Shown here one piece after another: positions 3,068 through 64,000 of a stretch of DNA of 64,000 nt (within the stretch, counting starts at the first letter, position 1; each line of letters begins with the position of its first letter). Under the pieces are notes generated by a model. That model made no database searches, was not told the DNA's origin, and worked only from the letters and a program-made list of their open reading frames with translations. The DNA comes from a bacterium. Lineage in GTDB: Bacteria > CG2-30-53-67. The stretch is taken from NCBI GenBank assembly GCA_919901565.1, contig CAKKPE010000138.1, positions 11,936 through 75,935 of the forward strand, in the 5' to 3' direction. Made by a program: the position numbers and the translations under genes.

Positions 3068-4084
3068 ATGCGGATTGCATTCCTTGTCAAGGGGTTGGAC
3101 ACACCGAGGACGAGATATCGTGTCACGCAGTACTTGCCATACCTCGAAGAGAAGGGGGCCGCGGCTAAGGTAATCGATATCCCACACAGCCCGGTCAAGA
3201 GATGGAGCGTTTTTCAGACTCTGGGTAATTATGATGTAGTGGTTATTCAAAAAAAATTATTCAGCATTCTGGACTTTCACCTCTTGAGAAAGAGGGTTAG
3301 GCGGCTGATATTCGATGTGGACGATGCCGTGATGGTGAAGCCGGGCCCTGTGCCTCATGAATCGTGGAGACGAAGAAGGCGTTTTGAAAGGACCGTGAAG
3401 GGATGTGATCTTGTATTTGCCGGGAACTCCTATCTCTCGTCAATGGTCGGAAATCTGGGTGCCCGGTCGATCCTGGTTCCGACCTGCATTGATCTGGACC
3501 GGTATCCGGCGCCAGACCATAAACGGTCTCGTGGAGATAGGATCCTCCATCTCGGCTGGATCGGCTCCCGAAGCACCCTCCCGCATCTTGCGGATCTTGC
3601 CCCGGTATTCCTGGGCCTATCCAAAACCTCGATGCCCATGGACCTGACTATCATATGCGATACTTTCCTGGATAACGTTGGGATACCGGTAAGGAAAAAG
3701 ACATGGTCCAAAAACACGGAAGTCGCAGACCTCATGGAGCTTGACGTCGGTCTTGCCCCGCTGCCGGAAGATGCATGGACGCGCGGCAAGAGCGCGACCA
3801 AGGTTATACAGTACATGGCCGCCGGATTGCCGGTGGTCTGTTCTCCGGTCGGGGCGAATGCAGATATTGTTCGTGACGGTGTGACAGGGTATTATGCAAG
3901 AAACCCCGATGAATGGGTTGATAATATTTTACATCTGGCCAAGGATCCGGAGGCACGGGCCCGGATGGGAAGAGAAGGAAGGAAACTTGTAGAAGATTCC
4001 TATTCTGTCCAGGCGGTTTTTCCCAGTATGTATGTCGGGTTGGAAGGGTGTTCCGGGTTCCCGGAATCTGGAGGTTTAACGTGA
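3068..4084 (+). CDS. Glycosyltransferase family 1-like
   Basis: The C-terminal region KSATKVIQYMAAGLPVVCSPVGANADIVRDGVTGYY is typical of GT1 enzymes. Confidence 0.7.
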   Translation: MRIAFLVKGLDTPRTRYRVTQYLPYLEEKGAAAKVIDIPHSPVKRWSVFQTLGNYDVVVIQKKLFSILDFHLLRKRVRRLIFDVDDAVMVKPGPVPHESWRRRRRFERTVKGCDLVFAGNSYLSSMVGNLGARSILVPTCIDLDRYPAPDHKRSRGDRILHLGWIGSRSTLPHLADLAPVFLGLSKTSMPMDLTIICDTFLDNVGIPVRKKTWSKNTEVADLMELDVGLAPLPEDAWTRGKSATKVIQYMAAGLPVVCSPVGANADIVRDGVTGYYARNPDEWVDNILHLAKDPEARARMGREGRKLVEDSYSVQAVFPSMYVGLEGCSGFPESGGLT

Positions 4085-5070
4085 GCCTTAAATGCCGAAT
4101 CTGCAGTAACATGGATGGGAATGTCTCATACGAGGTAAGAGAGATGATGTTCGGCACGCTGGAAGAATTCGAATATTTCAAATGCGGCCGATGCGGTTGC
4201 CTGCAGATCAAGGAAATCCCGGAAAACCTGAATGCCTATTATCCCAAAGATTATTATTCATTTGTCGGCTATTCAAAGTATTCAAAGCGGGCACGCCGTG
4301 GTTTGAAGCGTTGGTTCGACACCATGCGATTGGAATATCACATAACCGGGCGAGGTCTCGTTGGAAGGTTGGCCGCTCTGAGGGTAAAACCGCCCAAATA
4401 TATTGTCTGGGTCCGGGAGACCGGTATATCCCGTGACTCCAGGATACTGGACGTGGGTTGCGGCAGCGGAAAGCTCCTGGTGAAAATGAGTCTGGCGGGT
4501 TTCCGCCAATGCACGGGTATTGATCAATTCATAGAGAAGTCCGTGGAGTACCCGGGTGGTGTGAAGGTTATCAGACAGGACCTCTCCAGTCTTGCAGAGG
4601 ACACGGAAGAGAAATTCGATCTCGTCATGTTCCACCACTCCTACGAACATGTTCCGGATCCATATTCCACATTGCAGGCGGCAGCGAGACTTATCACGCC
4701 GGGCGGCTGGATTCTGATGGAGATTCCCCTTTCGGACTCAGAAGCCTGGGAAACGTATCGGGAAAGGTGGGTGCAGCTCGACGCTCCCCGTCATCTGTAC
4801 CTGCATACCCGGAGAAGCATGGAGCTTTTAGCGGCGCATGCAGGCCTTTGCATCAAGAAGGTAGTGTATGACTCCTCGGAGTTTCAGTTTCTTGGGAGCG
4901 AACTTTACACAAGGGGCGTCCCGCTGACAGCGGCAAAGAAAAAGAAGCTTACTAATTTTTTCAACAAGAGAGAAATCCAGGCCTTCAAGGAAAGGGCAAA
5001 AGAAGTGAACAATCTGGGCAGAGGGGATCAGGCTACATTCTTTATGGTGAGAAAAGAATGCAATCCATAA
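4081..5070 (+). CDS. Class I SAM-dependent methyltransferase with an N-terminal CxxC...CxxC zinc ribbon
   Basis: The zinc-ribbon pattern is CRICS...CGRCGC. The SAM motif is ILDVGCGSGKLL. The likely start is GTG at 4081, preceded by GGAGG; the ORF frame opens at 4048. Confidence 0.7.
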   Translation: MSLKCRICSNMDGNVSYEVREMMFGTLEEFEYFKCGRCGCLQIKEIPENLNAYYPKDYYSFVGYSKYSKRARRGLKRWFDTMRLEYHITGRGLVGRLAALRVKPPKYIVWVRETGISRDSRILDVGCGSGKLLVKMSLAGFRQCTGIDQFIEKSVEYPGGVKVIRQDLSSLAEDTEEKFDLVMFHHSYEHVPDPYSTLQAAARLITPGGWILMEIPLSDSEAWETYRERWVQLDAPRHLYLHTRRSMELLAAHAGLCIKKVVYDSSEFQFLGSELYTRGVPLTAAKKKKLTNFFNKREIQAFKERAKEVNNLGRGDQATFFMVRKECNP

Positions 5071-17782: not shown

Positions 17783-17995
17783 ATCTTTCGTAAGAAAGTT
17801 AAACGGCCGTAGAAATTAAAGATGAAGAATCAAAAATCAAAATGACAGTGTAAAAATCAAATTTATATTTTTCAATTTTTATATTTTGATTTGTCATTTT
17901 GATTTTTTATATTTGACCCTTGATTCTTAAGATGTGCAAGAAATATTTTAATTTCCAATCTCTGTGTGGTTCAACTTAAACACGAAAGAGAGGAT
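17783..17995. mobile_element. ~200-bp MITE-like element: TIR (CTTTCGT..AAGTT.AAC), AT-rich long palindrome, conserved right module GTGCAAGAA...TTTGATTTCCAAT...GGTTCAACTTAAACACGAAAGAG
   Basis: Copies lie at 29120..29325 and 53285..53488. Palindrome-only copies lie at 36838..36930 and 38935..39040, and a right-end-only copy at 1806..1860. Confidence 0.6.
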
Positions 17996-29085: not shown

Positions 29086-29355
29086 AGATTTTCCCCGGAT
29101 GGATGGAAAAAGTGTAGCACAAAATCAGGGCCGTTTAAAGAATAATAGAAATTAAAAATCAAAAATCAAAAATCAATATGACAGAGTAAAAATCAAATTT
29201 TGTATTTTGATTTGTCATTTTGATTTTTTATCTTTGATGTTTGATGCTTCAGGTGCGCAATAAAACCTTTGATTTCCAGTTTTTTACGCGGTTCAGCTTA
29301 AACTCGGAATAGGCAAATATGGCAGATGGATCAGGGGCTTACATCGGAGTTATTG

Positions 29356-36200: not shown

Positions 36201-36949
36201 AATTTGAATACTCCATGATACACAGGTTATAATCTATTATTCTATATTATATTTATGGCATATAAGTGTCAAGTTGTTTCCCCTGCCAAACTGAATGAAC
36301 ATCATAAGAGACGTGATGATATCAGGTGTTATTCATGGGGTTTCTGTTAACCTGTTTCATGAAAGCGGTTGAAGAGAGGCGGTGTGGCTGAATATCCGGA
36401 TAAGTGAAACGCCGCGCCTTTCAGATTATGGTCTTATCCGAACAATGCGGCCCGGCCTGGCTTGATCATCACACAATCCGAACTAATAGAATCTTTTTAA
36501 AGGTTCTGTGGATTTAAAAAGAACCTTGCCGCTGCTTTGCCTGATCCCGTTTATGAAATCGTAAAAATTATGTAACTGTTTGAAATTCAAAGTAATTTAA
36601 GTGATTAAAATATAGGCAAACTGCTCTTTATCCTTGACTGATGCCCTTGCCCTCCGGTTCTTCACACAGATTTTCACAGGCTTTTCACATTTTTTGTGAA
36701 CATCACTCATAACCCTCTAAAATATCATGGGGATTTTTAGATACAGAGATGTGATGGCGTGTGAATCCCGTAAGTCAGGCGGCCGGACGCGGTCCAGGGT
36801 CTCTCGGCCAAAAAAAGTATTTCTTGCACGCATTAAGAATCAAAGATCAAATATAAAAAATCAAAATGACAAATCAAAATATAAAATTTGATTTTTAATC
36901 TGTCATTTTGATCTTTGATTCTTTATCTTTACTTTCTATATCAGAACGG

Positions 36950-37828
36950 TTACCCGATCCAGGTGTGCCAGTCTTCGCTGATATCCCCGCTCAATTTGTA
37001 ACGGAGCATGGCATCCGTGCACGGACATTCGCGTTTGAGCGCATCCAGATGCTTAAGGGTTTTCCTGAGGATTTCCGGAAACAGGGCCAGTGCCTGTTTT
37101 AATTTTTCTCTGTCCCGGGGAGGGAGGGTCCCCTCGAAGAGGACCCCTTTCTCATAGGGGAGCGGGCGCACCCCTTCAGCATAATTAGAGATATAGCAAA
37201 GCGGGGCGTAACAGATTTCAAGCTCACGGGAGAGAAAGGGCTCCGGGACCAGGGTCATACCCACCAGGTCTCCTCCTATCTGTTTCATGTATTTGATTTC
37301 AGCCGGTGTCTCCAGTCTCGGCCCTTCAGTGCAGACGTATGTCCCTTTTTCATGGCAAGGAAGGCCGAGTTCTCCCAATGCCTTTTGAAAGGAGAGGCGG
37401 ATCTCCGGACAGAAAACCGGGTTCTGGCGGATGAAGCCGATTCCTTTCCCTTTAAAGAAGGTAGAGACACGGTTCCGGGTCAGATCGATGAGATCGTCCG
37501 GGAGGATGAGCTCTCCGGGGTGCATGGAGGCGTGGATGGCTCCGGGCCCGGACCATGAAAGAATGCGCTCGGCCCCCAATTCCTTGGCGGCATAAATGTT
37601 GGCGCGGTAATTGACAAAAGGCGCGGTGACATGGTATCCGCTTACACCGTGGCGGGAGAGGAATCCGACATGGGTCCCGGATATCTCCAGAATACGAATG
37701 GGAGAGGCCTCGCCGTAAGGTGTTTGCAGGGTTGCGGTTTCTTTTTCCCGGCCGAATTTTTCTACCGGGATATCGTAGGCCCCGCTTCCGCCGATGATCA
37801 GGGTTTTGATTTTTGGTTTGTTTGTCAT
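36950..37828 (-). CDS. Purine nucleoside phosphorylase family protein, MTAP-like
   Basis: The N-terminus KTLIIGGSGAYD resembles the MTAP IIGGSG motif. It is adjacent to two futalosine-pathway radical-SAM genes. Confidence 0.6.
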   Translation of the reverse strand: MTNKPKIKTLIIGGSGAYDIPVEKFGREKETATLQTPYGEASPIRILEISGTHVGFLSRHGVSGYHVTAPFVNYRANIYAAKELGAERILSWSGPGAIHASMHPGELILPDDLIDLTRNRVSTFFKGKGIGFIRQNPVFCPEIRLSFQKALGELGLPCHEKGTYVCTEGPRLETPAEIKYMKQIGGDLVGMTLVPEPFLSRELEICYAPLCYISNYAEGVRPLPYEKGVLFEGTLPPRDREKLKQALALFPEILRKTLKHLDALKRECPCTDAMLRYKLSGDISEDWHTWIG

Positions 37829-37834
37829 TTCTTT

Positions 37835-38911
37835 TTAAAACCTTTTCAGAATCTGATATATCGTATTCCTTTGTGCCGGTGAAAATCCAGCATCGCGGAT
37901 CAGTCGGATGATTTCCTCGGCGCTCATCCGGTAAGAGACCCCGGTGGCCGAGACCACGTTCTCTTCGATCATGGTGCTCCCGAAGTCATTGGTCCCGAAG
38001 AACAGGGCCACCTGCCCCATCTTGGACCCCTGCGTGACCCATGAGGCCTGGATGTTGTCGACATTGTCGAGAAAGATCCTGGAAACGGAGAGGACCCGGA
38101 GATATTCCACGCCGGTCAGGGTCTTGCCTCCTAATTCGGTGTTGCCTGACTGGTAGCTCCACGGGATAAAGGCGGTAAAACCGCCGGTCTCGTCCTGCAG
38201 GTCCCGGATCCGGACCAGATGCTCTACCACGTCCTCCGGTCTTTCCACGCTTCCGAACATCATGGTGGCCGAGGTCGGGATCGAAAGCCCGTGGGCCTGT
38301 CTCATGACATCGATCCAGGCTTCCTGGCCGATCTTGTTGGGGCTTATTCTGGCCCGGACGCTGTCTACCAGGATCTCGGCGCCGCCGCCGGGAATGGAAT
38401 CGAGTCCTGCCTGCTTGAGCCGGACCAGCACATCCCGGATGGTGATGGAGGACTGGCGGGACAGGTGGACGATCTCGGGGGGAGAGAGAGCGTGTATATG
38501 GATCGGGTACCTCGCCTTGATTTCATGGAAGAGTTCCTCAAAGTATTCAATGGTGAGGTCCGGGTGAATCCCTCCCTGCATCAGGATCTGTGTGCCGTTC
38601 AGCTCCAGGGTTTCTTGGATTTTCCTGAAGATCTCTTCCCGGGCCAGGAGATAGGCGTCCGGGTCTCCTTTGGCGCGGTAGAAGGCGCAGAACCGGCACC
38701 GGTTGATGCAGATATTGGTGTAATTGATGTTCCGGTCAATGATGAAGGTCACGGTCTGGTCCGGGTGTTTACGGCGCCTGCTCATCTGCGCCCACTCTCC
38801 AAGCTCCAGAAGATCGGCCTTTTCCAGCAGGAACAAGCCCTCCTGCGGGGTGAGGCGGGCTCCTTCCCGGATCTTTTCCTCTATCAGCGATAATTTTGAA
38901 GTTGCATTCAT
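37835..38911 (-). CDS. Radical-SAM enzyme of the MqnC/MqnE family (menaquinone via futalosine)
   Basis: The CxxxCxxC motif is CINRCRFCAF. The rest resembles the CofH/MqnC/MqnE fold. Confidence 0.7.
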   Translation of the reverse strand: MNATSKLSLIEEKIREGARLTPQEGLFLLEKADLLELGEWAQMSRRRKHPDQTVTFIIDRNINYTNICINRCRFCAFYRAKGDPDAYLLAREEIFRKIQETLELNGTQILMQGGIHPDLTIEYFEELFHEIKARYPIHIHALSPPEIVHLSRQSSITIRDVLVRLKQAGLDSIPGGGAEILVDSVRARISPNKIGQEAWIDVMRQAHGLSIPTSATMMFGSVERPEDVVEHLVRIRDLQDETGGFTAFIPWSYQSGNTELGGKTLTGVEYLRVLSVSRIFLDNVDNIQASWVTQGSKMGQVALFFGTNDFGSTMIEENVVSATGVSYRMSAEEIIRLIRDAGFSPAQRNTIYQILKRF

Positions 38912-38989
38912 TTCTTCTCTTCTGTGGAATCCTTATAAATCAAAAATAAAATATCAAAGATCAAAAATACAGAGCAAAAATCAAAATTT

Positions 38990-40135
38990 TTAATTGTCAT
39001 TTTGATTTTTGATATTTAATTCTTGATTTTTATCATACCGCCTGATCTCGCGATAAAGCGTATCCCGTTCCACCGGGACCTTGCCGGCTTTTTGAATCAT
39101 CCGGACCAGGGCCTCCCGGGAGAGGGCCTCGGAGGTCATGGCCCCCGCGGCATGGGTGATCTTTTCCTCCACCACGGTGCCGTCTATATCGTCCACACCG
39201 AAAAGGAGCGAGACCTGCGCTATTTTTTCTCCGAGCATGATCCAGAACGCCTTGATGTGGCTGAAATTATCCAGGAAGATGCGGCTGACTGCCATGGTCT
39301 TGAGGTCGTCGAACCCCGTGGTCATTCCGGTCTGCGGGATGCGCGTATTTTCAGGATGAAAGGCCAGCGGGATAAAGGCCTGGAATCCGCCGGTACGGTC
39401 CTGCAGGTCCCTGAGCCTTGACATGTGGTCGATCCGGGCCCTGGTGTCCTCCACATGGCCATAGAGCATGGTGGCGTTGGATTTGAGGCCTGCGGCATGC
39501 ACCGCCTCCATGATCTCGAGCCACTTCTCCCCGGTGATCTTTTCCGGGCAGATGGACTGCCGGACCCGGGGGTCAAAGATCTCTGCGCCGCCTCCGGGCA
39601 GGGACCCGAGGCCCGCCTGCTTGAGTTCCCGCAGCAGGTCCCCGATGGGGAGTCCGGTGATCCGGCTGAGATAGTCGATCTCCACCGCGGTGAAGGCCTG
39701 GATGTGGATATGCGGGAAGCGCTGCCGGAGCGTGGAAAGGAGATCCAGGTAGTAGTCCAGGGTGAGGTGGGGGTGGAGCCCTCCCACGATATGGAACTCC
39801 GTGGCCCCCTCGGCCGCTCCCTGCTCTGCCTTCTGGATGACCTCGGAGAGGTCCATGGTATAGGCGTCCGGATCCTTCTCATCCCGGCTGAAGGCGCAGA
39901 ACGTGCAGCGGTTCACACAGATATTGGTATGATTGATGTGGCGGTTGACGATAAAGTAAGCCAGGTCCCCGTTTTTGGCCCGGCACCGCATGGAGGCGAT
40001 CTTTCCCAGCCGGATCAGGTCATGCGACGCCATCAGGGCCAATGCCTCGTCAGGGCTGATCCGCAGGCCTTCTTCCACCTTGTTCTGAACAATGTCAAGC
40101 AGGTCCATGGTTTGCTCCATTCCGGGTGGAACCAT
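38990..40135 (-). CDS. Radical-SAM enzyme of the MqnC/MqnE family, paralog of the upstream gene
   Basis: The CxxxCxxC motif is CVNRCTFCAF. It is paralogous to 37835..38911. Confidence 0.7.
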   Translation of the reverse strand: MVPPGMEQTMDLLDIVQNKVEEGLRISPDEALALMASHDLIRLGKIASMRCRAKNGDLAYFIVNRHINHTNICVNRCTFCAFSRDEKDPDAYTMDLSEVIQKAEQGAAEGATEFHIVGGLHPHLTLDYYLDLLSTLRQRFPHIHIQAFTAVEIDYLSRITGLPIGDLLRELKQAGLGSLPGGGAEIFDPRVRQSICPEKITGEKWLEIMEAVHAAGLKSNATMLYGHVEDTRARIDHMSRLRDLQDRTGGFQAFIPLAFHPENTRIPQTGMTTGFDDLKTMAVSRIFLDNFSHIKAFWIMLGEKIAQVSLLFGVDDIDGTVVEEKITHAAGAMTSEALSREALVRMIQKAGKVPVERDTLYREIRRYDKNQELNIKNQNDN

Positions 40136-40310: not shown

Positions 40311-41162
40311 TCATCGCTCACCCTTTGCGATCCTGCTGATCGTCGAATAATGAAGACCCAGATGGGAGGCGATTTCGGTCTGCCGATACCCATATTGCTC
40401 CACCGCTTTTATGATCAATAGCTGTCTCATCTGTCGGCTCATACGAGTCTCTTCCCGAAAGAGCTTCTCCAACGATGGACGGTGCGCATAACGCTGACTC
40501 CGGGGGATCTCAGGAATATCCTTGCATTTTTTAAGGTAGTCCGACAGCTTCTCGACAAAGCTTTCCTCTCCCAGGAGTGTCTGACCCCGGACCTCGTTCC
40601 ACATTGTCTTCTGTCCAACACCCAGGGATACGAACTGCCGGTACCCCTTTCCCGCTTCGCCTCTTTTCCCGTCAAACTGGCTGAGCACCCAGTCTGTTGT
40701 CAGGCAGGGATGGGGTTTTACCCGTCCTGCTGTGGCAAGGTAACTGGAGAATGCATAGTCCTCGGGCTTCGCAACCATTTTTGCACGAACCGGATTGAGC
40801 ACAACATATCGGCACACTTCAAGAAGGTGGCTGTCCTTCTGGATCAGGATGGCCTTGTACCGGCCCTGAAATATATGGCCTGTTTTTCCATGCCATTTAT
40901 TAAAGCGTTGCGTATAGAGGCCGTTCAGTTGGCGCATGCCGATGGAGAGATTTCCGTCCGGGGTTTCGATGAGGAGATGATAGTGGTTGGTCATGAGGCA
41001 GTAGGCGTGACAAAGCCAATGGTAACGTTTATTCACATGCTGAAGGGCATGGAGAAAGTTGTTGCGGTCCTGATCATCCTTGAATACCGGCTTTTTATCG
41101 TTGCCCCGTGAGGTCACGTGATAGACTGCGCCGGGATATTCTATGCGGAGGGGACGGGCCAT
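40311..41162 (-). CDS. IS200/IS605-like Y1 (HuH) transposase domain fused to a C-terminal HTH; RAYT-like
   Basis: The HuH motif is HYHLLIETP, with QGRYKA downstream. The C-terminal HTH reads YRQTEIASHLGLHYSTISRIAKG. The start is ATG at 41162 (MARPLRIEYPG); the longer ORF to 41450 looks like a spurious extension. Confidence 0.65.
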   Translation of the reverse strand: MARPLRIEYPGAVYHVTSRGNDKKPVFKDDQDRNNFLHALQHVNKRYHWLCHAYCLMTNHYHLLIETPDGNLSIGMRQLNGLYTQRFNKWHGKTGHIFQGRYKAILIQKDSHLLEVCRYVVLNPVRAKMVAKPEDYAFSSYLATAGRVKPHPCLTTDWVLSQFDGKRGEAGKGYRQFVSLGVGQKTMWNEVRGQTLLGEESFVEKLSDYLKKCKDIPEIPRSQRYAHRPSLEKLFREETRMSRQMRQLLIIKAVEQYGYRQTEIASHLGLHYSTISRIAKGER

Positions 41163-41324
41163 AAAAAGACAATAACAAGCGGGAAGGGAAAAGTCAAGCA
41201 GCAAGACCTGACCCTGGGTTTTCGAAGTGAAAAGGGCATTGACGCGGCACAAGAGCCGTTGTATGGTGATCATGAAACCGTTCAACGGTTTAAACAGTTT
41301 AAACGATTTAAATGGTTTTTCCCT

Positions 41325-42092
41325 ATGATCGATATTCACTGTCATATCCTTCCGGGACTGGACGACGGTCCTGAGAATTTTCAGGGGACTCTCGAGATGT
41401 GCCGCATGGCCGTTGACTGTGGGATCACATCTGTTTTTGCGACCCCGCATCTTTACAACAGCCTATTTACGACAAACAGGGCATCGATCCTTGATGTATA
41501 TGAGGAGACCCGGGCGGCCCTTGAATCTGAAGGGGTTCCCTTGAGCCTCTATCTGGGCGCTGATCTGCACCTGGTTCCTGACCTGGGGGAGAAGATATTG
41601 AAAAACCAGGCGCTGACCTTGAATAACAGCCGGTATTTCCTGCTGGAACTTCCGTCTACGATACTCCCGCCGAATTTGGACCAGGTCGTCCAGAAAATGA
41701 TCTCAGACAGTTTTGTGCCGATCATCACCCATCCGGAAAGAAACCCGGTAATCCTGAAACGGGAGGAGATTCTTTTTGACCTGCTGGAGCAGGGGGCCCT
41801 GTGCCAGATCACGGCCATGAGCCTGACCGGGGAATTTGGAAAAGATTGTGAACGTTTTGCCTGCAGGATGCTCGAGGCCGGCGCCGTGCATTTCATTGCC
41901 TCGGATGCCCATTCCACGGGCTGGCGCAAGCCCGATCTTTGCCCTGCGGTCAGCGTGGCCGAACAGATCATTGGAGCAGAGGATGCCCGGCGGTTGGTCA
42001 AGGACTATCCGGAAGCGATCCTTTCCGGGGGAGGCATAGGCCCGGTTTCGGTAAAAAGGCCTCCAAAACCCAAAAGGTTCTGGTTTTTCTGA
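41325..42092 (+). CDS. PHP-family tyrosine-protein phosphatase (CpsB/YwqE-like)
   Basis: The N-terminus MIDIHCHILPGLDDGP is the CpsB signature. Confidence 0.7.
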   Translation: MIDIHCHILPGLDDGPENFQGTLEMCRMAVDCGITSVFATPHLYNSLFTTNRASILDVYEETRAALESEGVPLSLYLGADLHLVPDLGEKILKNQALTLNNSRYFLLELPSTILPPNLDQVVQKMISDSFVPIITHPERNPVILKREEILFDLLEQGALCQITAMSLTGEFGKDCERFACRMLEAGAVHFIASDAHSTGWRKPDLCPAVSVAEQIIGAEDARRLVKDYPEAILSGGGIGPVSVKRPPKPKRFWFF

Positions 42093-50937: not shown

Positions 50938-50946
50938 GCGTATACA

Positions 50947-51126
50947 ATGATGAAATGGTGTGACCTGCATTGTGAAGACGCATCATTCCCGGAAACCTCA
51001 GACGTGGACGGCTCCGGGAGCTGCAGGACGTTCCAGGCCCTCTACTGCAACAAACTCGGCCGGCTGGTCTACAAGAACGATCTCTGCCGCGCAGACCCTG
51101 CTCCAGAGGATGAAGGCGGCGAGTAA
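50947..51126 (+). CDS. Small Cys-rich ORF (59 aa, five Cys)
   Basis: The translation is MMKWCDLHCEDASFPETSDVDGSGSCRTFQALYCNKLGRLVYKNDLCRADPAPEDEGGE. It is below the ORF-track cutoff and has no strong RBS. Confidence 0.3.
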   Translation: MMKWCDLHCEDASFPETSDVDGSGSCRTFQALYCNKLGRLVYKNDLCRADPAPEDEGGE

Positions 51127-51136
51127 ATTCCGTTTA

Positions 51137-53221
51137 TCATTTTCCCCCCGATCTTGATAAGATTCTTTTTACTTCCTTGCTGTCGGTGAGCGGTTTCTTG
51201 CAGGTGTAATTCCTGCAGATATAGGCCGCGGGCTTGCCTGCCAGCGGGACTTTGCCTGCAAGGAAGGGGATGCCGTCCTCGAGTCCGGTTTGACCTTCCG
51301 GTGCAAATGCCACGACCTTGTTGGGGGCAAAGGGCTCCCGGACCGCCCGGACCATGGATTGCGTGGCCGATTCATCCCGTGTCCCGGTCACGGCGATCTC
51401 CATTGGATCGCTTACAAGGAAGTCCAGCGCGGCAAGACTCTGGGCATAGGCATTCGGCGAATCAGCCATGGAACCCGATATCCGCTGCAGGGTCTTGATC
51501 GCGGCCTCTTTCAATGGTGCTTCACCGGTGAATTCAAAGAGCCTGAGAAGGTTGAGCATGGCCACGGCATTTCCCGAGGGCTTGGCGCCGTCGTGGAACT
51601 CCTTGCTCCGGGCGAGGAGCGCAGGATCTCCATCCCGGGTGAAGAAGAAGCCTCCCTGCTCCGAATCATAGAAGTGCTCCATCATGGCCCGGTTGAGCTC
51701 AAAGGCCCTCCGGATCCATTCCGGGTTGAAGGTGGCCTGGTAGAGTTCAATCAACCCCTGTACGAAAAAGGCGTAATCATCCAGGTACGCCGGGATCCCG
51801 GCTTCTCCGTCCCGGTAGCACCGGAGCAGGCCCTGCTCTGTGAGGAGGCGCCGGACCACAAAGCGGGCGGCCTTTTCTGCAGCCTCGGCGTAACGGCGGT
51901 CATCCAGGACCTGGGCCGCATAGGCCATGGATCCGATCATCATGCCGTTCCAGGCCGTGAGGACCTTGTCGTCCCTGTGGGGCCGGACCCTTTGTGACCG
52001 GGCCTCCATCAGGAGCCTCCGGCCCTGAGAGAGGATTTCATTCAGTTCATTGAGGGGGATGTCCTGTTCCATGGCAAACGCCTCGGGCTCGATCCATTGA
52101 TGCAGGATGCTCCGGCCCCCTTCAAAATTTCCGTCCCTGGTCACACCGTAAAACAGGTTGAAGATTTTTGCGTTACCGGGCCCCAGGATGGATTCAACCT
52201 GTTCCGGCATCCAGACGTAGAAGGCCCCCTCCTCCCCCTCGCTGTCCGCGTCCTCCGCAGAATAGAATCCGCCCTCGGGATCGGTCATATCCCTGAGTAC
52301 ATAATCGAGGATCTCCCGTGCAGTTTCTTTGTATTCGGCCTTGCCCGTGACCTGAAAGGCTTCAACATAGACAAGGGAGAGAACCGCATTGTCATAGAGC
52401 ATCTTCTCGAAATGCGGGACCAGCCACTGTTCGTCCGTGGAATACCGATGGAAGCCGCCGCCGATCTGATCGTAGATCCCTCCCCGGGCCATGGACTCAA
52501 GGGTTTTCTCAACCATGTTCAGGGCCTCAGGCGAGCCGGTCCGGTGGTGATGACGAAGCAGGAAGGAGAGGGCCATCCCCTGTGGGAACTTGGGCGCAGT
52601 CCCGAAGCCGCCGTGCACCGGGTCAAAGTTTCTTGCGATTCCCATGAAGGCCCGGTCCAGCAGTTCCGGCCCGATCTTTGCCTGCGTTTCAGCCGAAGCT
52701 GAGCCTCGGATCACCTAGGTCAGCCGGTCCCCGCTTTTTACGACATCCTGGGGGTTCTCTTTCCAGAGTTTTACGATCTTGGGGAGCAGGGTCGTCATTC
52801 CGGCCCGTCCCCACTTGTCCCGCGGAGGGAAGTAGGTCCCCCCGAAGAAGGGTTTGAGGTCCGGCGTGAGAAAGACGTTCAGGGGCCACCCCCCGCCCCC
52901 GGTCAGGGCCTGCACCGCTGTCATGTAGATCTTATCCAGGTCAGGGCGCTCCTCCCGGTCCACCTTGATGCAGATGAAATCGCGGTTCAGCAGGGCTGCG
53001 ACCTCCTCGTCTTCAAAGGACTCCTCTTCCATCACGTGGCACCAGTGGCACGTGGAATATCCGATGGAGAGGAAGATCAGCCTGTTCTCTTTGCGTGCAC
53101 GATTTAGCGCCCCGGCGCCCCATGGATACCAGTCTACGGGATTGTAGGCATGCTGAAGCAGGTAAGGGCTCTTCTCCCCGATCAGGTGATTGGGCCGTCG
53201 GTGGTTTGGCTGCTTGGTCAT
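51137..53221 (-). pseudogene. DUF255/YyaL thioredoxin-domain protein interrupted by one in-frame TAG
   Basis: The N-terminal part (53221..52718) has the thioredoxin motif CHWCHVM. TAG at 52715..52717 is followed in the same frame by GTG and VIRGSAS...GGFGTAPKFPQGMALSFLL, the continuation of the same family. Confidence 0.6.
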
Positions 53222-53491
53222 GGGGTCTCCTTCTCTTTATTGAACCAGAGACGGCGGTTTCCGTCAATTTGAGAGATTATAAAATTTACGGTACTGTCGT
53301 AAGGAAGTTGAATGGCCATGGAAATCAAGAATAAAAAATCAAACATCAAAATGACAAAGTAAAAATCAAATTTTATATTTTGATTTGTGATTTTGATTTT
53401 TTATATTTGATTTTTGATTCTTAAGGCGTGCAAGAAGTCCTTTGATCTCCAATTTTTGCGTGGTTCAACTTAAACAGGAAAAAGGGAAATG

Positions 53492-55324
53492 TTATGCAGG
53501 TGTGACCGGTATCCTGAACTTAAAGCAGGTCCCTTTGCCGTTCTGCTTTTCCACCCAGATCTTCCCGCCGTGTTTGGCAATGATTTCTCTGGATATCGGG
53601 AGGCCCAGGCCGGTGCCCCCTTTGGCGAATTGAACGTCACTTTCGATCTGCTGGAATTTATCAAAGATCATCTCGTGAAACGCCTCTGGGATCCCTGGTC
53701 CTTGATCGGAGACCGAGATCTCGATCCATTCTGCCGGTTCTGCCGTACCGCCGGCCGGGCCAGGCCCCATGGGTGCTCCGGTCTCTTTGATGCACTCGGC
53801 CTCGATCCTGATCTCACCGCCCGGAGGGGAATAGTTGATGGCGTTCTTGATGAGATTTGAAAAAACCTGCCTCAGACGGTTGGGTTCCGCCAGGATGAGA
53901 GGGATCGTATTTTTTATCGTGGAGCTGATCCGGATATCCTTGATCCTGCATTCCCCCTGATTGATCTGTTCAAATTCCAGGACCATCTCCGAGAGGTTCA
54001 CTTTCTGGAAGCGGTAATGGATCATCCCGCTTTCAAGTTTGGTCAGGTCCAGGTAGTCATTGATCAGGGAGGCCATACGGTCCGCCTCCTTGAGGATGAT
54101 CTCGATGAATTCCCGCTTGGTTTTTTCGTCCTCATCCGGGAAGCGCAGGATCAGGTCCGCATAGGCCTTCACAGAGGTGAGGGGCGTCCGGAGATCATGG
54201 GCCACGGTATCAAGGAAATTTGTCTTTTTCCGGTCCTGTTCCTTTAAAGCCTTGTTGGTCTGTTCCAGCTCTTTGGTTCGTTTTCCCACGGCTTCGGCCA
54301 TGATGTTGAATTTCTGCGAGAGGAGGGCGATCTCATCCTTGCCCCTGGACGTGAGCCGGTATTCATATTCGCCTGATGCGACCCGCTCCGCCCCGCGGCT
54401 TAGATCCTCGATGGGTTTCATGATCCGGTATCCGAGGATCATGGCGATCCAAAACGCGGCCCAGACTATCGCCATCCCGGTCAGGATCATGTTCTGTGAC
54501 ATGGATGAGATGATCGTGTCCAGTCCGAGATAGTTCGGTTCGATCAGGATCGGAAGCCCCAGGTCAGGGATCATGGAGCCGATATTCAGAAGCTGTCCCC
54601 GGTTGTCGATTATCTCCTCAGTGTAAAAAGGATCGTCCCTGTTCACCAACTGTTTTTTATACCATTTGTCCAAATAAGACGGGTACTGATCTGTGCGCTC
54701 TCTTACAGCCGGTTCTTCCAACGTGCCGTAAAGCAGGTTCCCGGACCAGTCCCGGATACAGACACAGGTTTCTTTTAAGGGCCCCCGAAAAACCAGATCG
54801 TCCATGATCTGACGGATCCCCAGGAATATGAACCCTTCTCCTGCAAGGGCCCCTGTTTCATCGTAGAACCTCCTGGATACCCGGAGCAATGAGCGTGTCG
54901 GATCTTTCCTGGGGATGATCCGGAATGCAAGGTTTTTGTCTGACGGGTCCAAATCATTCTCCTCCGGTTCGCTGGCCCAATCGGCTGAGGGATCCCCCGG
55001 GGCAAGGAAGGCGGCGTTCATGATGAATTTTGTCTGTAATATATCGAACATATCTTTTTTTTGTTGAAGTGCATTTGTATCGGGGTTCTTTATGTAAAGG
55101 AGAAAGTCATTAAGAGAGAGATCAGCGAGCTCATCTTTACTATTATTCATGATTTGGGTGAACTGTGTGACAATGAACCTGCTGTACTGCATCGTGGTTT
55201 TTTTCTCGAAGGTACGCATCGGCTCCACTATGGAACTGTATGCGGCCAGGCCGTACAGTAAAGCGGTGAGAATGATCAGGAAGATAAAAGATGTGATGAG
55301 TTTGGCGCGGATCTTCATAGCCAT
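53492..55324 (-). CDS. Sensor histidine kinase (two TM segments, periplasmic domain, HAMP, HisKA, HATPase_c)
   Basis: The H-box reads LDTVAHDLRTPLTSV. The G-boxes read VSDQGPGIP and GTGLGLPISREI. Confidence 0.8.
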   Translation of the reverse strand: MAMKIRAKLITSFIFLIILTALLYGLAAYSSIVEPMRTFEKKTTMQYSRFIVTQFTQIMNNSKDELADLSLNDFLLYIKNPDTNALQQKKDMFDILQTKFIMNAAFLAPGDPSADWASEPEENDLDPSDKNLAFRIIPRKDPTRSLLRVSRRFYDETGALAGEGFIFLGIRQIMDDLVFRGPLKETCVCIRDWSGNLLYGTLEEPAVRERTDQYPSYLDKWYKKQLVNRDDPFYTEEIIDNRGQLLNIGSMIPDLGLPILIEPNYLGLDTIISSMSQNMILTGMAIVWAAFWIAMILGYRIMKPIEDLSRGAERVASGEYEYRLTSRGKDEIALLSQKFNIMAEAVGKRTKELEQTNKALKEQDRKKTNFLDTVAHDLRTPLTSVKAYADLILRFPDEDEKTKREFIEIILKEADRMASLINDYLDLTKLESGMIHYRFQKVNLSEMVLEFEQINQGECRIKDIRISSTIKNTIPLILAEPNRLRQVFSNLIKNAINYSPPGGEIRIEAECIKETGAPMGPGPAGGTAEPAEWIEISVSDQGPGIPEAFHEMIFDKFQQIESDVQFAKGGTGLGLPISREIIAKHGGKIWVEKQNGKGTCFKFRIPVTPA

Positions 55325-57740: not shown

Positions 57741-60700
57741 ATGAAGAAAAGACACACTTTGCTTGGTTTGAAAATATTCGTAGTTTACTTGCTGGTTCTC
57801 CTGAACACTGCAATGCCTTCCTGGGCTCTCGACTCGGATGGAGATGGCATTGATGATGGCCTGGACAACTGTCCCAATACCTATAATCCCTCTCAGATAG
57901 ATCTGGATAGTGATGGGATGGGTGATGCATGTGATGACTATACAGACTCTCTCGATCAGTCCGTTTGGATGACTTTCCTTTCATCCGCCACAGCTCCGGA
58001 AAGTTCAATCTCTCCACAGGATATAACTTCCAGGATGAAGGACAGTTTGCTGTTTAATGAAGAATTTATCGTGCAGAAAAATAAGGGGAAATATTATACC
58101 TTGAGTTTTCGCTCCGACCTCGAAGCAAGCGGTCTTTCATCTCTTTATTTGAGTATCTATGTGAATATATACGGAGGGCCGACACAAACGGCGCACCTAT
58201 ATGCCTATAATGCCGACGGTGATTTAGTGAATACGTCCTTGGCATTGCAGTACACGCTTAACCAGGGGTGGAATGATCTGGATGTTGGCCCGTTTCTTCC
58301 GTTAATGCAAGGATTCGGGTTTGTGAAGTTCAGGGTCTACGCCACAGTCAGCAACGCTTTCGCGGTTTCCGAGGCGTACTTTACCGGAGACCTGCTTGTG
58401 CGAGAAGAACCAAACCAGGCCCCTGTGGCCGCCGCAAACGGTCCTTATAGCGGAATTTCCGGCGTTCCCATTTCATTTCGTAGTAACGGCTCGAATGACC
58501 CTGATGCGAATGCCATCACATTTCTTTGGGATTTTGGAGATGGTTCGACATCCACGGAAGCCAATCCGACATATACCTACACCTCAGCCGATACCAACAC
58601 CGTCACCCTTACAGTAACGGACTCGAAAGGGCTGTCAGATACCGACACGACCACCGCCACCATATTCAACAGCTCCTTCGAAACCATAAAACCCACCGAT
58701 GCATTCAACTCCGAAGGCTGGACAAACTCGTATAACGGCTATGACGCGGATATGAATTCTTACAGCTATGTAAAATCTCCCGCTGCAGTACCATCCATAT
58801 CCTTCGGCGGATCTGCCTCCGGTGAATCAACAAACGCATGGCAGAGCAAGCTTAACTATTGGAATGCAGCATGGCTATCCATTACTTTCGAGGCGTCGTC
58901 CGCAGCCAAGAAGGATGACTTGATCGAGATTGTAATCACAGACCGGAACGGAAATATAAAACATACAATGGTTGCCCCAACGCCGCAAGTCTGGCCCAGA
59001 CAAGAACTTGTTAAGAAACTGAATATGTCGGACTGGGGGGATGGGTTCAGTAGCATCGCTAATCTGCGGGTGCGAATCAATGGGTACAGAAAAAAAGGGG
59101 CGGACGGTGCGCAACCCAGGGTTTACGACGTTCATATCGATGGAGACGCTGCACCGGATACGAAGACCTATACGAGAGGCGTGTACAATGTGCTCCCATT
59201 AGACTCAACTGATTTATCAGTTGATTTTTCGCCCGCAGAAATCACGAATGTGGATTCCGATGATGATAAGAGGGTATCCCTATTTGCGCCATCCAATCAA
59301 TACCCAATGCACCTCTTCAAGCAAAAGGCCCCCTCCCACAATGTATCAATTATGTGGAACGGTCAGATCAGTCAGGGAGGAGTTGAGGCTTATGCACAAT
59401 CGTTTACGCCTAATCACTCGGGTGACCTCACTGCAATAAGAATATTTTTTGAAAAAACAGGGCAGCCCGGCGGGTTGTTGAGAGTCCGAGTGAAATCTGA
59501 ATTGGGCGGCGTCATTCTTGCCGAGAGCAATCCTGTAGCAGAAGCTACTCTTGATATAACTGGAAGTTGGAAGGCATTCACTTTTGCTGATCCTGCACCA
59601 TTGGTGGCGGGAAACACATATTATATAGAGATATGGCGGGATCAGGCAGACTTTATCAATTTTCCTGAATTAGTGATAAGGAGTTGTTCAGACATCCAGG
59701 CTTCTGCATGGCCGCGTAGTAATGGAGATTGGCCAGACATTACTACGTCCTCTCCCGACCCCATTTTGTTTGAGGTTGATTTAAATAATACTTTAGAGGT
59801 TAGTACCCTTGGGTGTATTATACCTATCACACCCGAGAGATCCATTTATGGCCTTGATTGGAGGAACATCTACCTGGAAGCTTATAACCGAACCACCTCT
59901 TCCTGGGTTCAGTTGGATACGGCCTTGTATGATGGTTCAACGACCGATGTTGACCTTTCCGGAACGGTGATTTTAGATGATTATTTCGATACGAACAACT
60001 GGATTGCTGTCAGGGTTTATTCGGATACCAACCCGCAGAGGGGATATAGCTTGGGCACGGACATGATAGGGATTGCTTCAGTAAGTGGAGAGATTAAAGT
60101 CGATCCTTTATTTTTGGATTTTGGATATCAGCAGACGGGTAGCGTGTCATCTTTGAACCTTGCAATATCCAATCTCGGCATGCTGGATTTGATGATCGGG
60201 ACAATTTTCTCTCCTTCAGCACCGTTCTCGGTTTCCTCTGATGGCTGCTCAGGCCAGACACTCGCTCCCTTGGCATCTTGCACTGTCACGGTAGCATTTA
60301 ATCCAACGTCTGAGCAGGCATTTTCAGATACCATGATCATCACTTCCAATGATCCCAATCATCCGAACATCACGGTGAATCTTAATGGGGTCGGAATCGT
60401 TCCATTGGCTTCTTTGACAGGAATGGTCACGGACTTATTGTCCGGCTTGCCATTGTCAAACGTTATGGTCGACGTGACCGATTCGCTGACCATGCATTCA
60501 GCAACCACCGATTCCAACGGCACCTACACCATGACCGGCTTGGCCGAAGGTAGTTTCACAGCAACTTTTTCAAGGTCCGGTTATGTGCCGCAGACAGCAA
60601 CCGGCACATTGACCGCGGGGGATACACAAACGTTTGATGTGCAGCTGAGCCCTGTCCAGGCCCTCAGCATTTCCATCACATCTCCGGCGGACGGCTCGGT

Positions 60701-62936
60701 CTTCAACTCATCTCCTGCTGCCGTGACAGGCACAGTGACAGACAATGCATCCGTCACGGTGAACGGTATTCCCGCTGTGCTCTCCAACGGCACCTTTACG
60801 GCTTTGATTGACCTCGCCGAGGGGACGAATACCATCACGGCATCTGCCTCGGACACATACGGCCAGACCGCATCGGACAGCATCACGGTGACCCTTAGCA
60901 TTTCGCAGGCTCCGATAATAAGCAATATTACGGTGACCGGCATCACCGCGGATTCAGCCGTCATCACATGGACCACGGACCAGCCCGCGGACAGCCTGGT
61001 GGACTACGGAGAAACAGTATCCTATGGAACCCAGGCCGCCGATTCAAACCTGGTCACGGCCCACGCCATCACTTTAAGCAGCCTGAATCCTGGTACGGCC
61101 TATCATTTCAGAGTCACATCCAAAAACGCAGAGGGCCTTTCCTCCTCATCCGGGAACAGCACCTTTACCACCCAAGGTGCTTTGTTTAATGCAGTAGCCC
61201 TTGGAGATTACGGCAATGTCACGGTCATGGAAGTGACCGGGAGCTATGATGCCGGTAATCCTGATGGTACCATAAACGATTCTCCGAGGCAGGCCATCGC
61301 AAAGGAGTTCTACAAGAATCATGCGGACTCTTATGACTTTCTTGTGATCTTTTCCAGCTTTGACTTCACCATGCCCGAACCTGCCGCAAAGGCATTCTAT
61401 CTCGAGGTTAAAAATGATACCCAGGGGATCGGAAAACTGCTTTTTAATAACTCCGGCCTGTACGGGAGCTCAAAACTCCAGGGCATCATAGATATGGGCA
61501 ATATCACAGCCATTATTTCGAATCCTGTTGACCCTATGTCCGATGATACCATTTCTACCCTTGCACATGAGCAGATGCACAGATGGGGTGCAAGTATTAA
61601 GTTCAGAGACGCATACGGTAATGATAGCACCGCACTTCTTGGAAAAGACGGGACCCACTGGAGCTTCCTGCTTAACTCCTATGCATCGGTTCTTTACGGC
61701 AATGACTGGATGGATAATGGAGACGGCACCTTCACATCCACAGGCGGCAGTAAATATTACAGTCCTCTTGATTTGTATCTCGCAGGTTTTTATGACAAAA
61801 CACAGGTTCCTCAGATGCTTCTTATTGATAATCCATTGATTGATGCAACAGGATTGCCTGAGGTCGGTGCAACGATTTCAGGGATCGCACGATACATCAC
61901 GATAGATGATATTATAGCGTCGGAAGGAGAGAGAATTCCAAATGTCTCCACATCACAAAAGCCCTTTAAAACAGCTTTTATACTGATAACAAGACCGGGG
62001 ACATTCGACAGCAATGTATTGCCCGGCATTGAGACAATAAGGAGCGCATGGGCAGGAAGATTTACAGAACTTACACATGGCAAGGGTATGATAATGGATA
62101 TTGCTCCATCAATTGCATTAGCTATCGGTTCTCCTTCGGATGGTGAAACGATAGCTGAACCTGAAGTGACAGTCAAAGGCGCTGTTATCAATAACACAGG
62201 GAATGAGACAGGAGTGATAGTAAACGGTATTCCTGCAACAGTATACGGCACGCAGTTCATAGCTGAAGATGTCCCATTGACAGAAGGATCAAATACCATT
62301 ACAGTCACAGCGACAGATACGGCTGGTATTGCGGCAACATCATCAATACCCGTGAACGCGGTGACAACCGGCGATTATATAAAGCTCTATTCCAATATGG
62401 AATCGGGAATATTACCTCTTGAATCAACATTAAAAATTGACGGCTCCTTCAGTATCACAAACTCAGGCTTGAATATAACTGGCCCCGTACAGCCAACAAT
62501 TCTCTTGTCAAGTGCTGATGAATATAGAGTTAAATTCATTGCTGAGGGAATCTATTTCATAACAGCGAGTACAACCGGACCTGATAATAATATCTATCAG
62601 GATACAATCGCGGTAATGATTTTCAATAAGACGCAGCTTGACGAACTTCTTAAAATGAGATGGGAGAGTATGAGGGGGCAGCTTTCAAGTCAGGATGTTG
62701 ATGGCGCGGTAGGATATTTCGAGACAAATTCTCATGAAGTATATAGGAATCAATTTACGGAATTATCATCCATTCTGCCTATCATAGGCAATGATATGGG
62801 ACAAATTCAATTGCTTACAATTAAAGATAATAGAGCCGAGTACGAAATAATTGTCACGAGGAATAGTGTTACATATTCTTTCAATCTCTTGTTTGTTAAA
62901 GATGTAAATGGATTCTGGAAAATAAGGAAATTCTAA
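57741..62936 (+). CDS. Giant secreted multidomain protein (1731 aa): TSP type-3 Ca-binding repeats, PKD, choice-of-anchor-D-like, CarboxypepD_reg-like, Ig-like, FN3, HExxH motif
   Basis: A signal peptide is followed by [36 protein letters not shown] (TSP3). The PKD domain reads [13 protein letters not shown]...[12 protein letters not shown]. The FN3 reads [23 protein letters not shown]. The HExxH motif is [10 protein letters not shown]. The region has lower GC. Confidence 0.8.
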   Translation: [1731 protein letters not shown]

Positions 62937-62942
62937 AATAGT

Positions 62943-63605
62943 TTGAAATGGAGGATTAAAGTGCGAAACATATTTTTATTGGCTTTAATAATTGGATCTA
63001 TGTTTGTAAATGGAGTAACAAAAGGTTATGCAGGTGGATGGTTGGTTTATAGCAAACCGGAATTTAAAGGGAAGGTTATAGACGCGGAGACGAAAGAACC
63101 GATAGAAGGAGCCGTTGTAGTAGCGGTGTACAGCAAGCAAGCTATCAGGGTTGCACCTGAGTCGGTGGGTATTACTATTGATGTCAAAGAAAGTCTTGCA
63201 GATAAAGACGGGAATTTCCGTATTCCGTCATACATAACAATAATAGACCCTTTTGCATGGAGTAAGCCGGTAACATTTATCATCTTTAAACCTGGATACG
63301 GCAGTTTTCCGGACTGGAGGGTACGTCCTCCCAAGGGCATGAGCATGGAAATAACCTTCGAGAAATTTTTCTCAGGTGAGGTAGGAGTTGAAAAAGAGGT
63401 ATGGGTTACTACTGATCCATGGAAGATTGGCTCAGAGTCTAAAAAAGAAAAGGTTGTTTTTGGCGTTGTTGAACTGCCTAAATTGAAGACGAGGGATGAG
63501 AGATGGAAGGCAAGTATGGTAGGCATAACAGGTTATACTTCAAAGGAATTGCCGCTTTTATATAAGGCACGCGATGAAGAAGATAAAACATTAGGCATAA
63601 AATAG
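62943..63605 (+). CDS. Secreted hypothetical protein (CarboxypepD_reg-like beta-sandwich motif)
   Basis: A signal peptide is followed by GKVIDAETKEPIEGAVVVAVY...KDGNFRIP. There is a 7-bp gap after the giant gene. Confidence 0.45.
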   Translation: MKWRIKVRNIFLLALIIGSMFVNGVTKGYAGGWLVYSKPEFKGKVIDAETKEPIEGAVVVAVYSKQAIRVAPESVGITIDVKESLADKDGNFRIPSYITIIDPFAWSKPVTFIIFKPGYGSFPDWRVRPPKGMSMEITFEKFFSGEVGVEKEVWVTTDPWKIGSESKKEKVVFGVVELPKLKTRDERWKASMVGITGYTSKELPLLYKARDEEDKTLGIK

Positions 63606-63617
63606 GGGAAAAACCAT

Positions 63618-64000
63618 ATGAAGAAGATATTCTTGAAAATATTTATTGCCTTAATATCTTTGTTTGTGTATGGAACAAATAGTGATGCATTAAATGTTAT
63701 GACTCATAAAGCAATAAATACTTATATTTCACAAAATATACTAAATGGAGTTTCTTTGGATATATATTCAAAAACCCAATTAGGATTCGGAAATGGTATA
63801 AAAGAAGAGTTTAACTCTTTAATGATATGGGAATGGCTTCGTGACGGTGGTGAATACGAAGACATTCCTTACTGGTACACTCCTTATTTTCGTTCTGTTA
63901 ATCACTTCCATAATCCGTTGAACGATCAAGGGTATAGTGGTTTTTGGGGTACCGGGATTATGTCCGGTATATCTTCCATGCAATGGGCATTATTGCCTCA
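63618..64000 (+). CDS. Secreted protein, Zn-dependent phospholipase C-like N-terminus (partial, runs off the window)
   Basis: A signal peptide is followed by VMTHKAINTYISQNIL...NHFHNP, which resembles the PLC N-terminal Zn-site region. No stop lies in the window. Confidence 0.4.
   Translation, partial: MKKIFLKIFIALISLFVYGTNSDALNVMTHKAINTYISQNILNGVSLDIYSKTQLGFGNGIKEEFNSLMIWEWLRDGGEYEDIPYWYTPYFRSVNHFHNPLNDQGYSGFWGTGIMSGISSMQWALLP

Follow-up and report, generated by a model that had tools for sequence, protein, structure and literature searches.

The window analysed here, a 64-kb stretch of bacterial DNA, contains a yyaL gene whose reading frame is interrupted once, by a TAG codon that is followed directly by GTG and by a long open stretch in the same frame. 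Why should 2 pieces of what looks like a single protein be separated by one amber codon? The initial annotation, made from the letters of the window alone, had listed four possible causes: a recent pseudogenization, a sequencing error, programmed read-through of the codon or, as the least likely, an amber-decoding event. We have compared the locus with its relatives, with other assemblies of the same DNA and with known systems in which TAG interrupts a gene.

The features of the locus are collected in Table 1. On re-reading of the sequence, the coordinates given earlier for the N-terminal piece, for the TAG and for the adjoining GTG were all exact. The N-terminal piece starts at an ATG on the minus strand (53221..53219) and its last residues before the TAG are ...SGDRLT; the frame after the TAG is open for 525 codons, from the GTG at 52714 to the TGA at 51139..51137. 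The altered base is window position 52717, which is T on the minus strand and A on the plus strand. We observed that the AAGGAGA sequence preceding the first ATG can form a duplex of -9.3 kcal/mol with the anti-Shine-Dalgarno sequence, and that this duplex is among the strongest in the window. Upstream of the GTG that follows the TAG there is only a G-run, GCGGGG, at a distance of ~14 nt and with a duplex energy of -6.2 kcal/mol; it is weak and poorly spaced, and is not a dedicated ribosome-binding site.

Table 1. Features of the yyaL locus and copies of the AT-rich element, in window coordinates
Feature	Position	Strand	Basis or remark
N-terminal piece, 168 codons	52718..53221	-	PF03190 match; NCBI MEK6777689.1
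C-terminal piece, 525 codons	51140..52714	-	NCBI MEK6777688.1
Shine-Dalgarno-like AAGGAGA, 4 nt 5' of the N-piece ATG	53226..53232	-	sequence and anti-SD duplex
In-frame amber TAG in place of GAG (Glu169)	52715..52717	-	comparison with seven orthologs
GTG right after the TAG; the only putative codon for re-initiation of the C-terminal piece	52712..52714	-	
Natural stop TGA of the full-length gene, then TAA	51137..51139	-	orthologs end there too
AT-rich imperfect palindrome with AATCAAA/TTTGATT heptamers, ~100 nt, upstream of yyaL	53322..53423	.	
Five copies of the AT-rich element	17790-17950, 29115-29280, 36800-36960, 38900-39065, 53290-53455		

The N-terminal piece is a complete thioredoxin-like DsbH/DUF255 domain with a CHWCH motif. 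It matched the Pfam profile PF03190 (Thioredox_DsbH) with an E value of 7e-77 and 257.3 bits, against a cut-off of 27, over profile positions 2-158 of 163. The CHWCHVM sequence that had been ascribed to this piece is present at residues 58-64, and C59, W61, C62 and H63 were invariant in a 36-sequence alignment. The C-terminal piece gave weak GH88 and GlcNAc 2-epimerase-like matches on Pfam, and its layout is that of a linker, an (alpha/alpha)6 six-hairpin domain and a C-terminal beta/alpha subdomain. When the 2 pieces were joined, the resulting sequence aligned with the full-length PDB chain 7TKV_A in one alignment (residues 10-684, E 1.5e-123), and homologs of about 700 aa covered 98-100% of the joined query. 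Because of the PF03190 match and the single alignment to 7TKV_A, we regard the pieces as halves of one protein, normally a single chain of 694 residues, and not as chance neighbors; the earlier statement that one family continues in the same frame on both sides of the TAG is thereby supported.

The locus thus has the PF03190 domain, the C-x-W-C-H motif and the collinear (alpha/alpha)6 domain of the YyaL/SSP411 (SPATA20) family, of which 7TKV is a full-length example; its domains come in the same order, it too has the CHWCH motif, and it aligns with the joined sequence from end to end. The close relatives in this family are single ORFs, whereas the window copy is broken by the TAG at codon 169 (52717..52715). 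The literature that we found under YyaL, DUF255, SSP411 and SPATA20 consisted only of mammalian sperm and biomarker papers, in which neither the bacterial function nor split forms are treated.

The codon in relatives and in the assemblies

In a homolog search that covered 5.8 billion protein clusters, and of which the best 120 matches were considered, every match was 683-895 aa in length with the exception of the window's own 525-aa fragment (P0003), which is identical to the C-terminal piece. The nearest orthologs, P0001 (84% identity, 700 aa) and P0002 (79%, 694 aa), are each encoded by one ORF, and their DNA at the site reads CTGACC-GAG-GTGATC, as compared with CTGACC-TAG-GTGATC in the window. 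We also scanned JGI metagenomes with this exact pattern, leaving the first base of the codon free. Five further orthologs (79-82% identity) were found in this way, all with GAG and none with TAG, and they were uninterrupted wherever the contig was complete; the other 46 of the 51 pattern matches were chance occurrences in unrelated genes. The ortholog alignment called for in the initial annotation therefore rests on seven sequences (79-84% identity), all of which have GAG (Glu) in the same context. Since this context is otherwise identical, the lesion consists of one G-to-T transversion in a codon for glutamate. The GTG after the TAG is an ancestral valine codon, which the orthologs share. Across the 120 homologs the aligned column is variable (E26 D21 K17 G14 A13 and others), so no special residue is to be expected at codon 169.

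More widely, among the matches listed, 80 species-representative genomes spread over many phyla were compared, and yyaL was uninterrupted in 77. The three exceptions were a Chloroflexia MAG (L071) with an internal stop elsewhere, at query position 200 (about nt 3553), a Zixibacteria MAG (L040) with a C-terminal frameshift near residue 621 (about nt 4859-4890), and a truncated match (L080). The lesions in the 2 MAGs are unrelated to that in the window, and amount to a background of ~2-3% broken yyaL copies in species-representative MAGs. The surroundings of the gene are also shared with the orthologs, which like the window have a histidine kinase gene upstream of yyaL and a rubrerythrin gene downstream. 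From the uninterrupted state of the relatives and from their GAG at the site, it follows that the halves are not normally separate genes and that the TAG is private to the lineage; the homologs compared, both close and distant, are each encoded by one ORF, in agreement with the expectation of one protein of ~690 aa. As to the organism itself, an uncultured bacterium, its ClpC is 95% identical to that of a Crystal Geyser 'Nitrospirae' MAG and 66-68% identical to those of other Nitrospirota, and judged by this protein it belongs in a Nitrospirota-related groundwater lineage.

Is the TAG present in the genome? The samples came from well H32 of the Hainich Critical Zone Exploratory groundwater and were sequenced on a NextSeq 500; filter replicates were assembled one by one with metaSPAdes (PMC8672522). 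We found the TAG in three assemblies. It is present in the 76,167-bp MAG contig at NCBI, where the pieces are annotated as the adjoining coding sequences MEK6777689.1 and MEK6777688.1, in the ENA metaSPAdes contig Hain_H32_02um_R1_1216 (20,511 bp, cov 7), which is 100% identical over the region, and in a Logan contig from run ERR3858122, which runs for 1,000 bp straight across the site and is also 100% identical.

An error at the level of the consensus would mean that the true genome has GAG and that the T is a sequencing error, or a minority variant, which became fixed at low coverage. The coverage is indeed low (about 7x k-mer coverage, as the ENA contig name itself states), the three assemblies may share reads, and lesions of this sort are met in comparable material, both as the background of ~2-3% broken yyaL copies described above and as other broken genes in MAGs of the lineage, such as a histidine kinase gene that is split in one of them (L002) and intact in the window. 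Illumina substitution errors, on the other hand, should not prevail in a consensus built at a coverage of 7x and above. Furthermore, the three assemblies (76 kb, 20.5 kb and 1 kb) were made with different software and agree fully over the region, the Logan contig without interruption, and the protein collection held no intact allele of the species, the nearest full-length match being 84% identical. The agreement of assemblies that differ in software and length makes an assembler artefact unlikely. Of the sequencing-error option, a consensus error or a captured minority allele keeps a small probability, given the low coverage and the reads that the assemblies may share. With GAG in the relatives and TAG in three assemblies, the evidence favors the first of the four causes that had been listed, a recent and real mutation.

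Possible decoding of the TAG codon

A real TAG could in principle be decoded, through pyrrolysine, a suppressor tRNA or context-dependent read-through, such that a full-length protein would still be made. The feature of the locus that invites this reading is the homology on both sides of the codon, a pattern that bioRxiv 10.1101/2024.09.30.615893 classes as 'Category 1'. We used the read-through classes of that report for the long ORFs of the window that end in TAG. TAG is the terminator of 13 of the 44 long ORFs, and yyaL was the sole case among the 13 with homology across the codon; reading through the other 12 adds 2-52 intergenic codons or, in one case, enters a separate gene. The window therefore lacks the pattern of genome-wide reassignment, in which TAG stops are rare and many genes are bridged.

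Two sets of further candidates were examined and set aside. The ORF at 62943-63605, considered as a second instance of an in-frame TAG, has a frame that is open beyond its TAG as far as the edge of the window, but on translation a new gene, with a signal peptide of its own, was seen to start at ATG 63618. Among 34 joins of long open stretches across a single stop, all except yyaL either lay opposite a long ORF on the other strand or were boundaries of adjacent genes.

The window was likewise searched for the components that decoding would involve. A tRNA scan and an Rfam scan of the 64 kb found no tRNA and no Rfam family, respectively. A Pfam scan of 43 long ORFs and one 59-aa ORF of the window detected no gene for pyrrolysine synthesis and no methylamine methyltransferase, and neither pylT nor pylSBCD was found within the 64 kb. 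A stimulatory RNA structure was looked for in the 121 nt after the TAG: the minimum free energy of -43.8 kcal/mol was no better than that of shuffled sequences (mean -42.0 kcal/mol, z = -0.47), and this segment is ordinary coding sequence that is common to the orthologs.

Comparison with the pyrrolysine genes mtmB, mtbB and mttB, which likewise have an in-frame TAG with homology on either side, brings out the differences. According to bioRxiv 10.1101/2024.09.30.615893, reports of bacterial pyrrolysine are limited to methylamine methyltransferases and a single serine dehydratase, whereas the window protein belongs to the YyaL/SSP411 family; its TAG is not conserved, seven orthologs having GAG; the residue concerned is unconstrained, lying in a variable column at the edge of a linker; and the window has neither pyl genes nor a tRNA-Pyl and uses TAG normally as a stop elsewhere. 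With these comparisons, and with a search for decoding components that covered the 64-kb window, we consider decoding of this codon extremely improbable. Amber decoding keeps the last place that it had been given, with an unconserved TAG, a variable column and an ordinary use of TAG as stop all speaking against it, and programmed read-through, for which the absence of RNA structure downstream has to be added, is left without support. The yyaL site should not be counted as evidence for amber recoding.

Selection, the domain boundary and the fate of the two pieces

With two intact orthologs as references, omega (dN/dS) on the branch leading to the window copy was 0.145 for the N-terminal half and 0.206 for the C-terminal half, values that are no higher than those between the intact orthologs (0.24-0.27) but that, being branch-wide, reflect mostly the history before the mutation and cannot separate a very recent loss from continued function. 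The dS of this branch was about 0.29. No second disabling lesion was present in the 693 codons of yyaL. The locus thus has one lesion and low omega, where an old pseudogene would have several lesions and relaxed selection. From the low omega and the single lesion we infer that either the mutation is very recent relative to the branch or both pieces are still useful; on the sequence comparisons, these observations would fit a recent loss and 2 functional pieces equally well.

The position of the break was examined on an AlphaFold model of the ortholog P0001 (pLDDT 90.1, pTM 0.93). In this model the thioredoxin-like domain closes with a helix at 158-173, and E170, the residue equivalent to codon 169, is three residues from the end of that helix; a disordered linker (177-185) follows, with the start of the second domain near residue 191. 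The break in the window therefore falls at a domain boundary. An isolated thioredoxin-like domain of 173 aa has been crystallized alone (PDB 3IRA) and aligns to residues 9-172. Since these boundaries nearly match those of the 168-residue product, and since the modelled domain ends at about the same place, the product should fold. As a stand-alone Thioredox_DsbH, however, it would differ from 3IRA in origin, its short form being derived from a fresh nonsense codon in a two-domain gene and not from an ancestrally separate one.

Our preferred reading, to which we assign a probability of roughly 0.6, is that of a real and recent nonsense mutation under the standard code, by which YyaL has been cut to its thioredoxin-like domain and the remainder of the gene has become an incipient pseudogene. 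A G-to-T transversion private to the lineage would have changed codon 169 from GAG (Glu) to TAG, at which translation is expected to end under the standard code. With the native promoter, the Shine-Dalgarno sequence and the ATG in place, translation would then yield the 168-residue thioredoxin-like domain alone, and of the 525-codon remainder, which lacks its own ribosome-binding site, little or nothing would be produced. The locus would accordingly be an incipient pseudogene, or else a truncation allele that retains the thioredoxin-like domain. The lesion differs in nothing substantive from recent bacterial pseudogenes with a single nonsense codon (annotated by PGAP as 'internal stop'), which are likewise due to one substitution in an otherwise intact, lineage-private copy; here the break happens to be located at a domain boundary, with an in-frame GTG after it.

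These last features also bear on a gene fission in progress, in which both pieces would be made and used, the second through re-initiation at the GTG and translational coupling, and in which the 2 polypeptides may associate with each other. The TAG and the in-frame GTG directly adjoin, such that termination-reinitiation would be possible; the break near the end of the last thioredoxin-like helix, ahead of the disordered linker, and the crystallization of such a domain alone with almost the same boundary speak for a split at this place; and both halves bear the marks of purifying selection with no further lesions. Yet the selection is open to the reading given above, the GTG lacks a proper Shine-Dalgarno sequence and is merely the ancestral valine codon, and none of ~200 family members examined, among the matches listed, is split at this place, so that there is no sign of lasting viability for such an arrangement. 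We regard a fission as unlikely, although it is the main rival of the preferred reading and ranks ahead of a sequence artefact and of decoding. The more specific proposal, that the locus is at the first step of a fission at which a nonsense codon at the linker and an in-frame GTG have yielded two coupled genes, both with products under selection, appears to us distinctly doubtful. If fission were true, the locus would be a small and clean natural example of a gene split by a nonsense codon at a domain boundary.

The biological weight of the observation is small: a widespread gene of unassigned function is broken in a single low-coverage MAG from groundwater, events of this kind are well known, and the public record already contains the 2 pieces. 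For annotation, it means that one gene has been entered as two halves, MEK6777689.1 and MEK6777688.1, which would be better flagged as a pseudogene with an internal stop or as a split gene.

Neighboring loci

The AT-rich palindrome upstream of yyaL is not involved in the lesion. It is part of a dispersed ~130-nt element, an AATCAAA...TTTGATT imperfect palindrome around an ATGACA...TGTCAT core. Matches to TTTGATTTTTGATT with up to 2 mismatches numbered 32 in the window, as against 1.1 expected, and all but two of them were located at five intergenic sites. The copies lie just upstream of the starts of a MazG/aldehyde dehydrogenase locus, an HD-domain gene, ClpC, an mqn-type radical-SAM gene and yyaL. 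The five copies can be aligned with a mean column identity of 64%, and three of them also have flanks in common. Within the copy upstream of yyaL we observed sigma-70-like hexamers on both strands, with promoter-like ones pointing to yyaL. The element had no Rfam match and was not conserved upstream of yyaL in 2 orthologous loci (L002 and L003); candidate identities are a mobile element, promoter-bearing or MITE-like, and an array of regulator-binding sites. An unusually long IS200-like Y1 transposase of 379 aa (PF01797 at residues 109-216, with a C-terminal HTH_23 domain) is encoded at 40314-41450 on the minus strand, ~1.3 kb from one copy.

On the other side of yyaL, where its 3' end faces that of the rubrerythrin gene, the two genes are separated by a 190-bp segment (50939-51128) that is specific to the window. 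It is absent at all five orthologous loci checked (L002, L003, L089, L118 and L125), in which the genes are 11-53 nt apart. The segment contains a 59-aa ORF (50947-51126, plus strand) with five cysteines, MMKWCDLHCEDASF..., which was also called by the ENA gene caller and which gave no Pfam match.

The histidine kinase gene (HAMP/HisKA/HATPase_c) at 53492-55324 on the minus strand of the window is a single ORF of 610 aa. In the MAG that carries the intact P0001 (L002, 1196-2534), the same kinase is split over a pair of called genes, one of 332 aa and one of 115 aa, which indicates that single-gene disruptions occur elsewhere in MAGs of this lineage.

Finally, the segment from 57741 to 64000 (plus strand) contains three successive genes in one frame, parted by TAA and two codons and by TAG and four codons, respectively. 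The first encodes a 1731-aa surface protein with PKD, ASH/HYDIN Ig-like, CarboxypepD_reg, Glucodextran_B and fn3 domains. The second, of 220 aa and with no Pfam match, has a stretch of hydrophobic residues at its N-terminus, and the N-terminus of the third, which starts at ATG 63618 and runs past the end of the window, resembles a signal peptide; in view of these N-termini, we take the three to be separate genes and not products of read-through.
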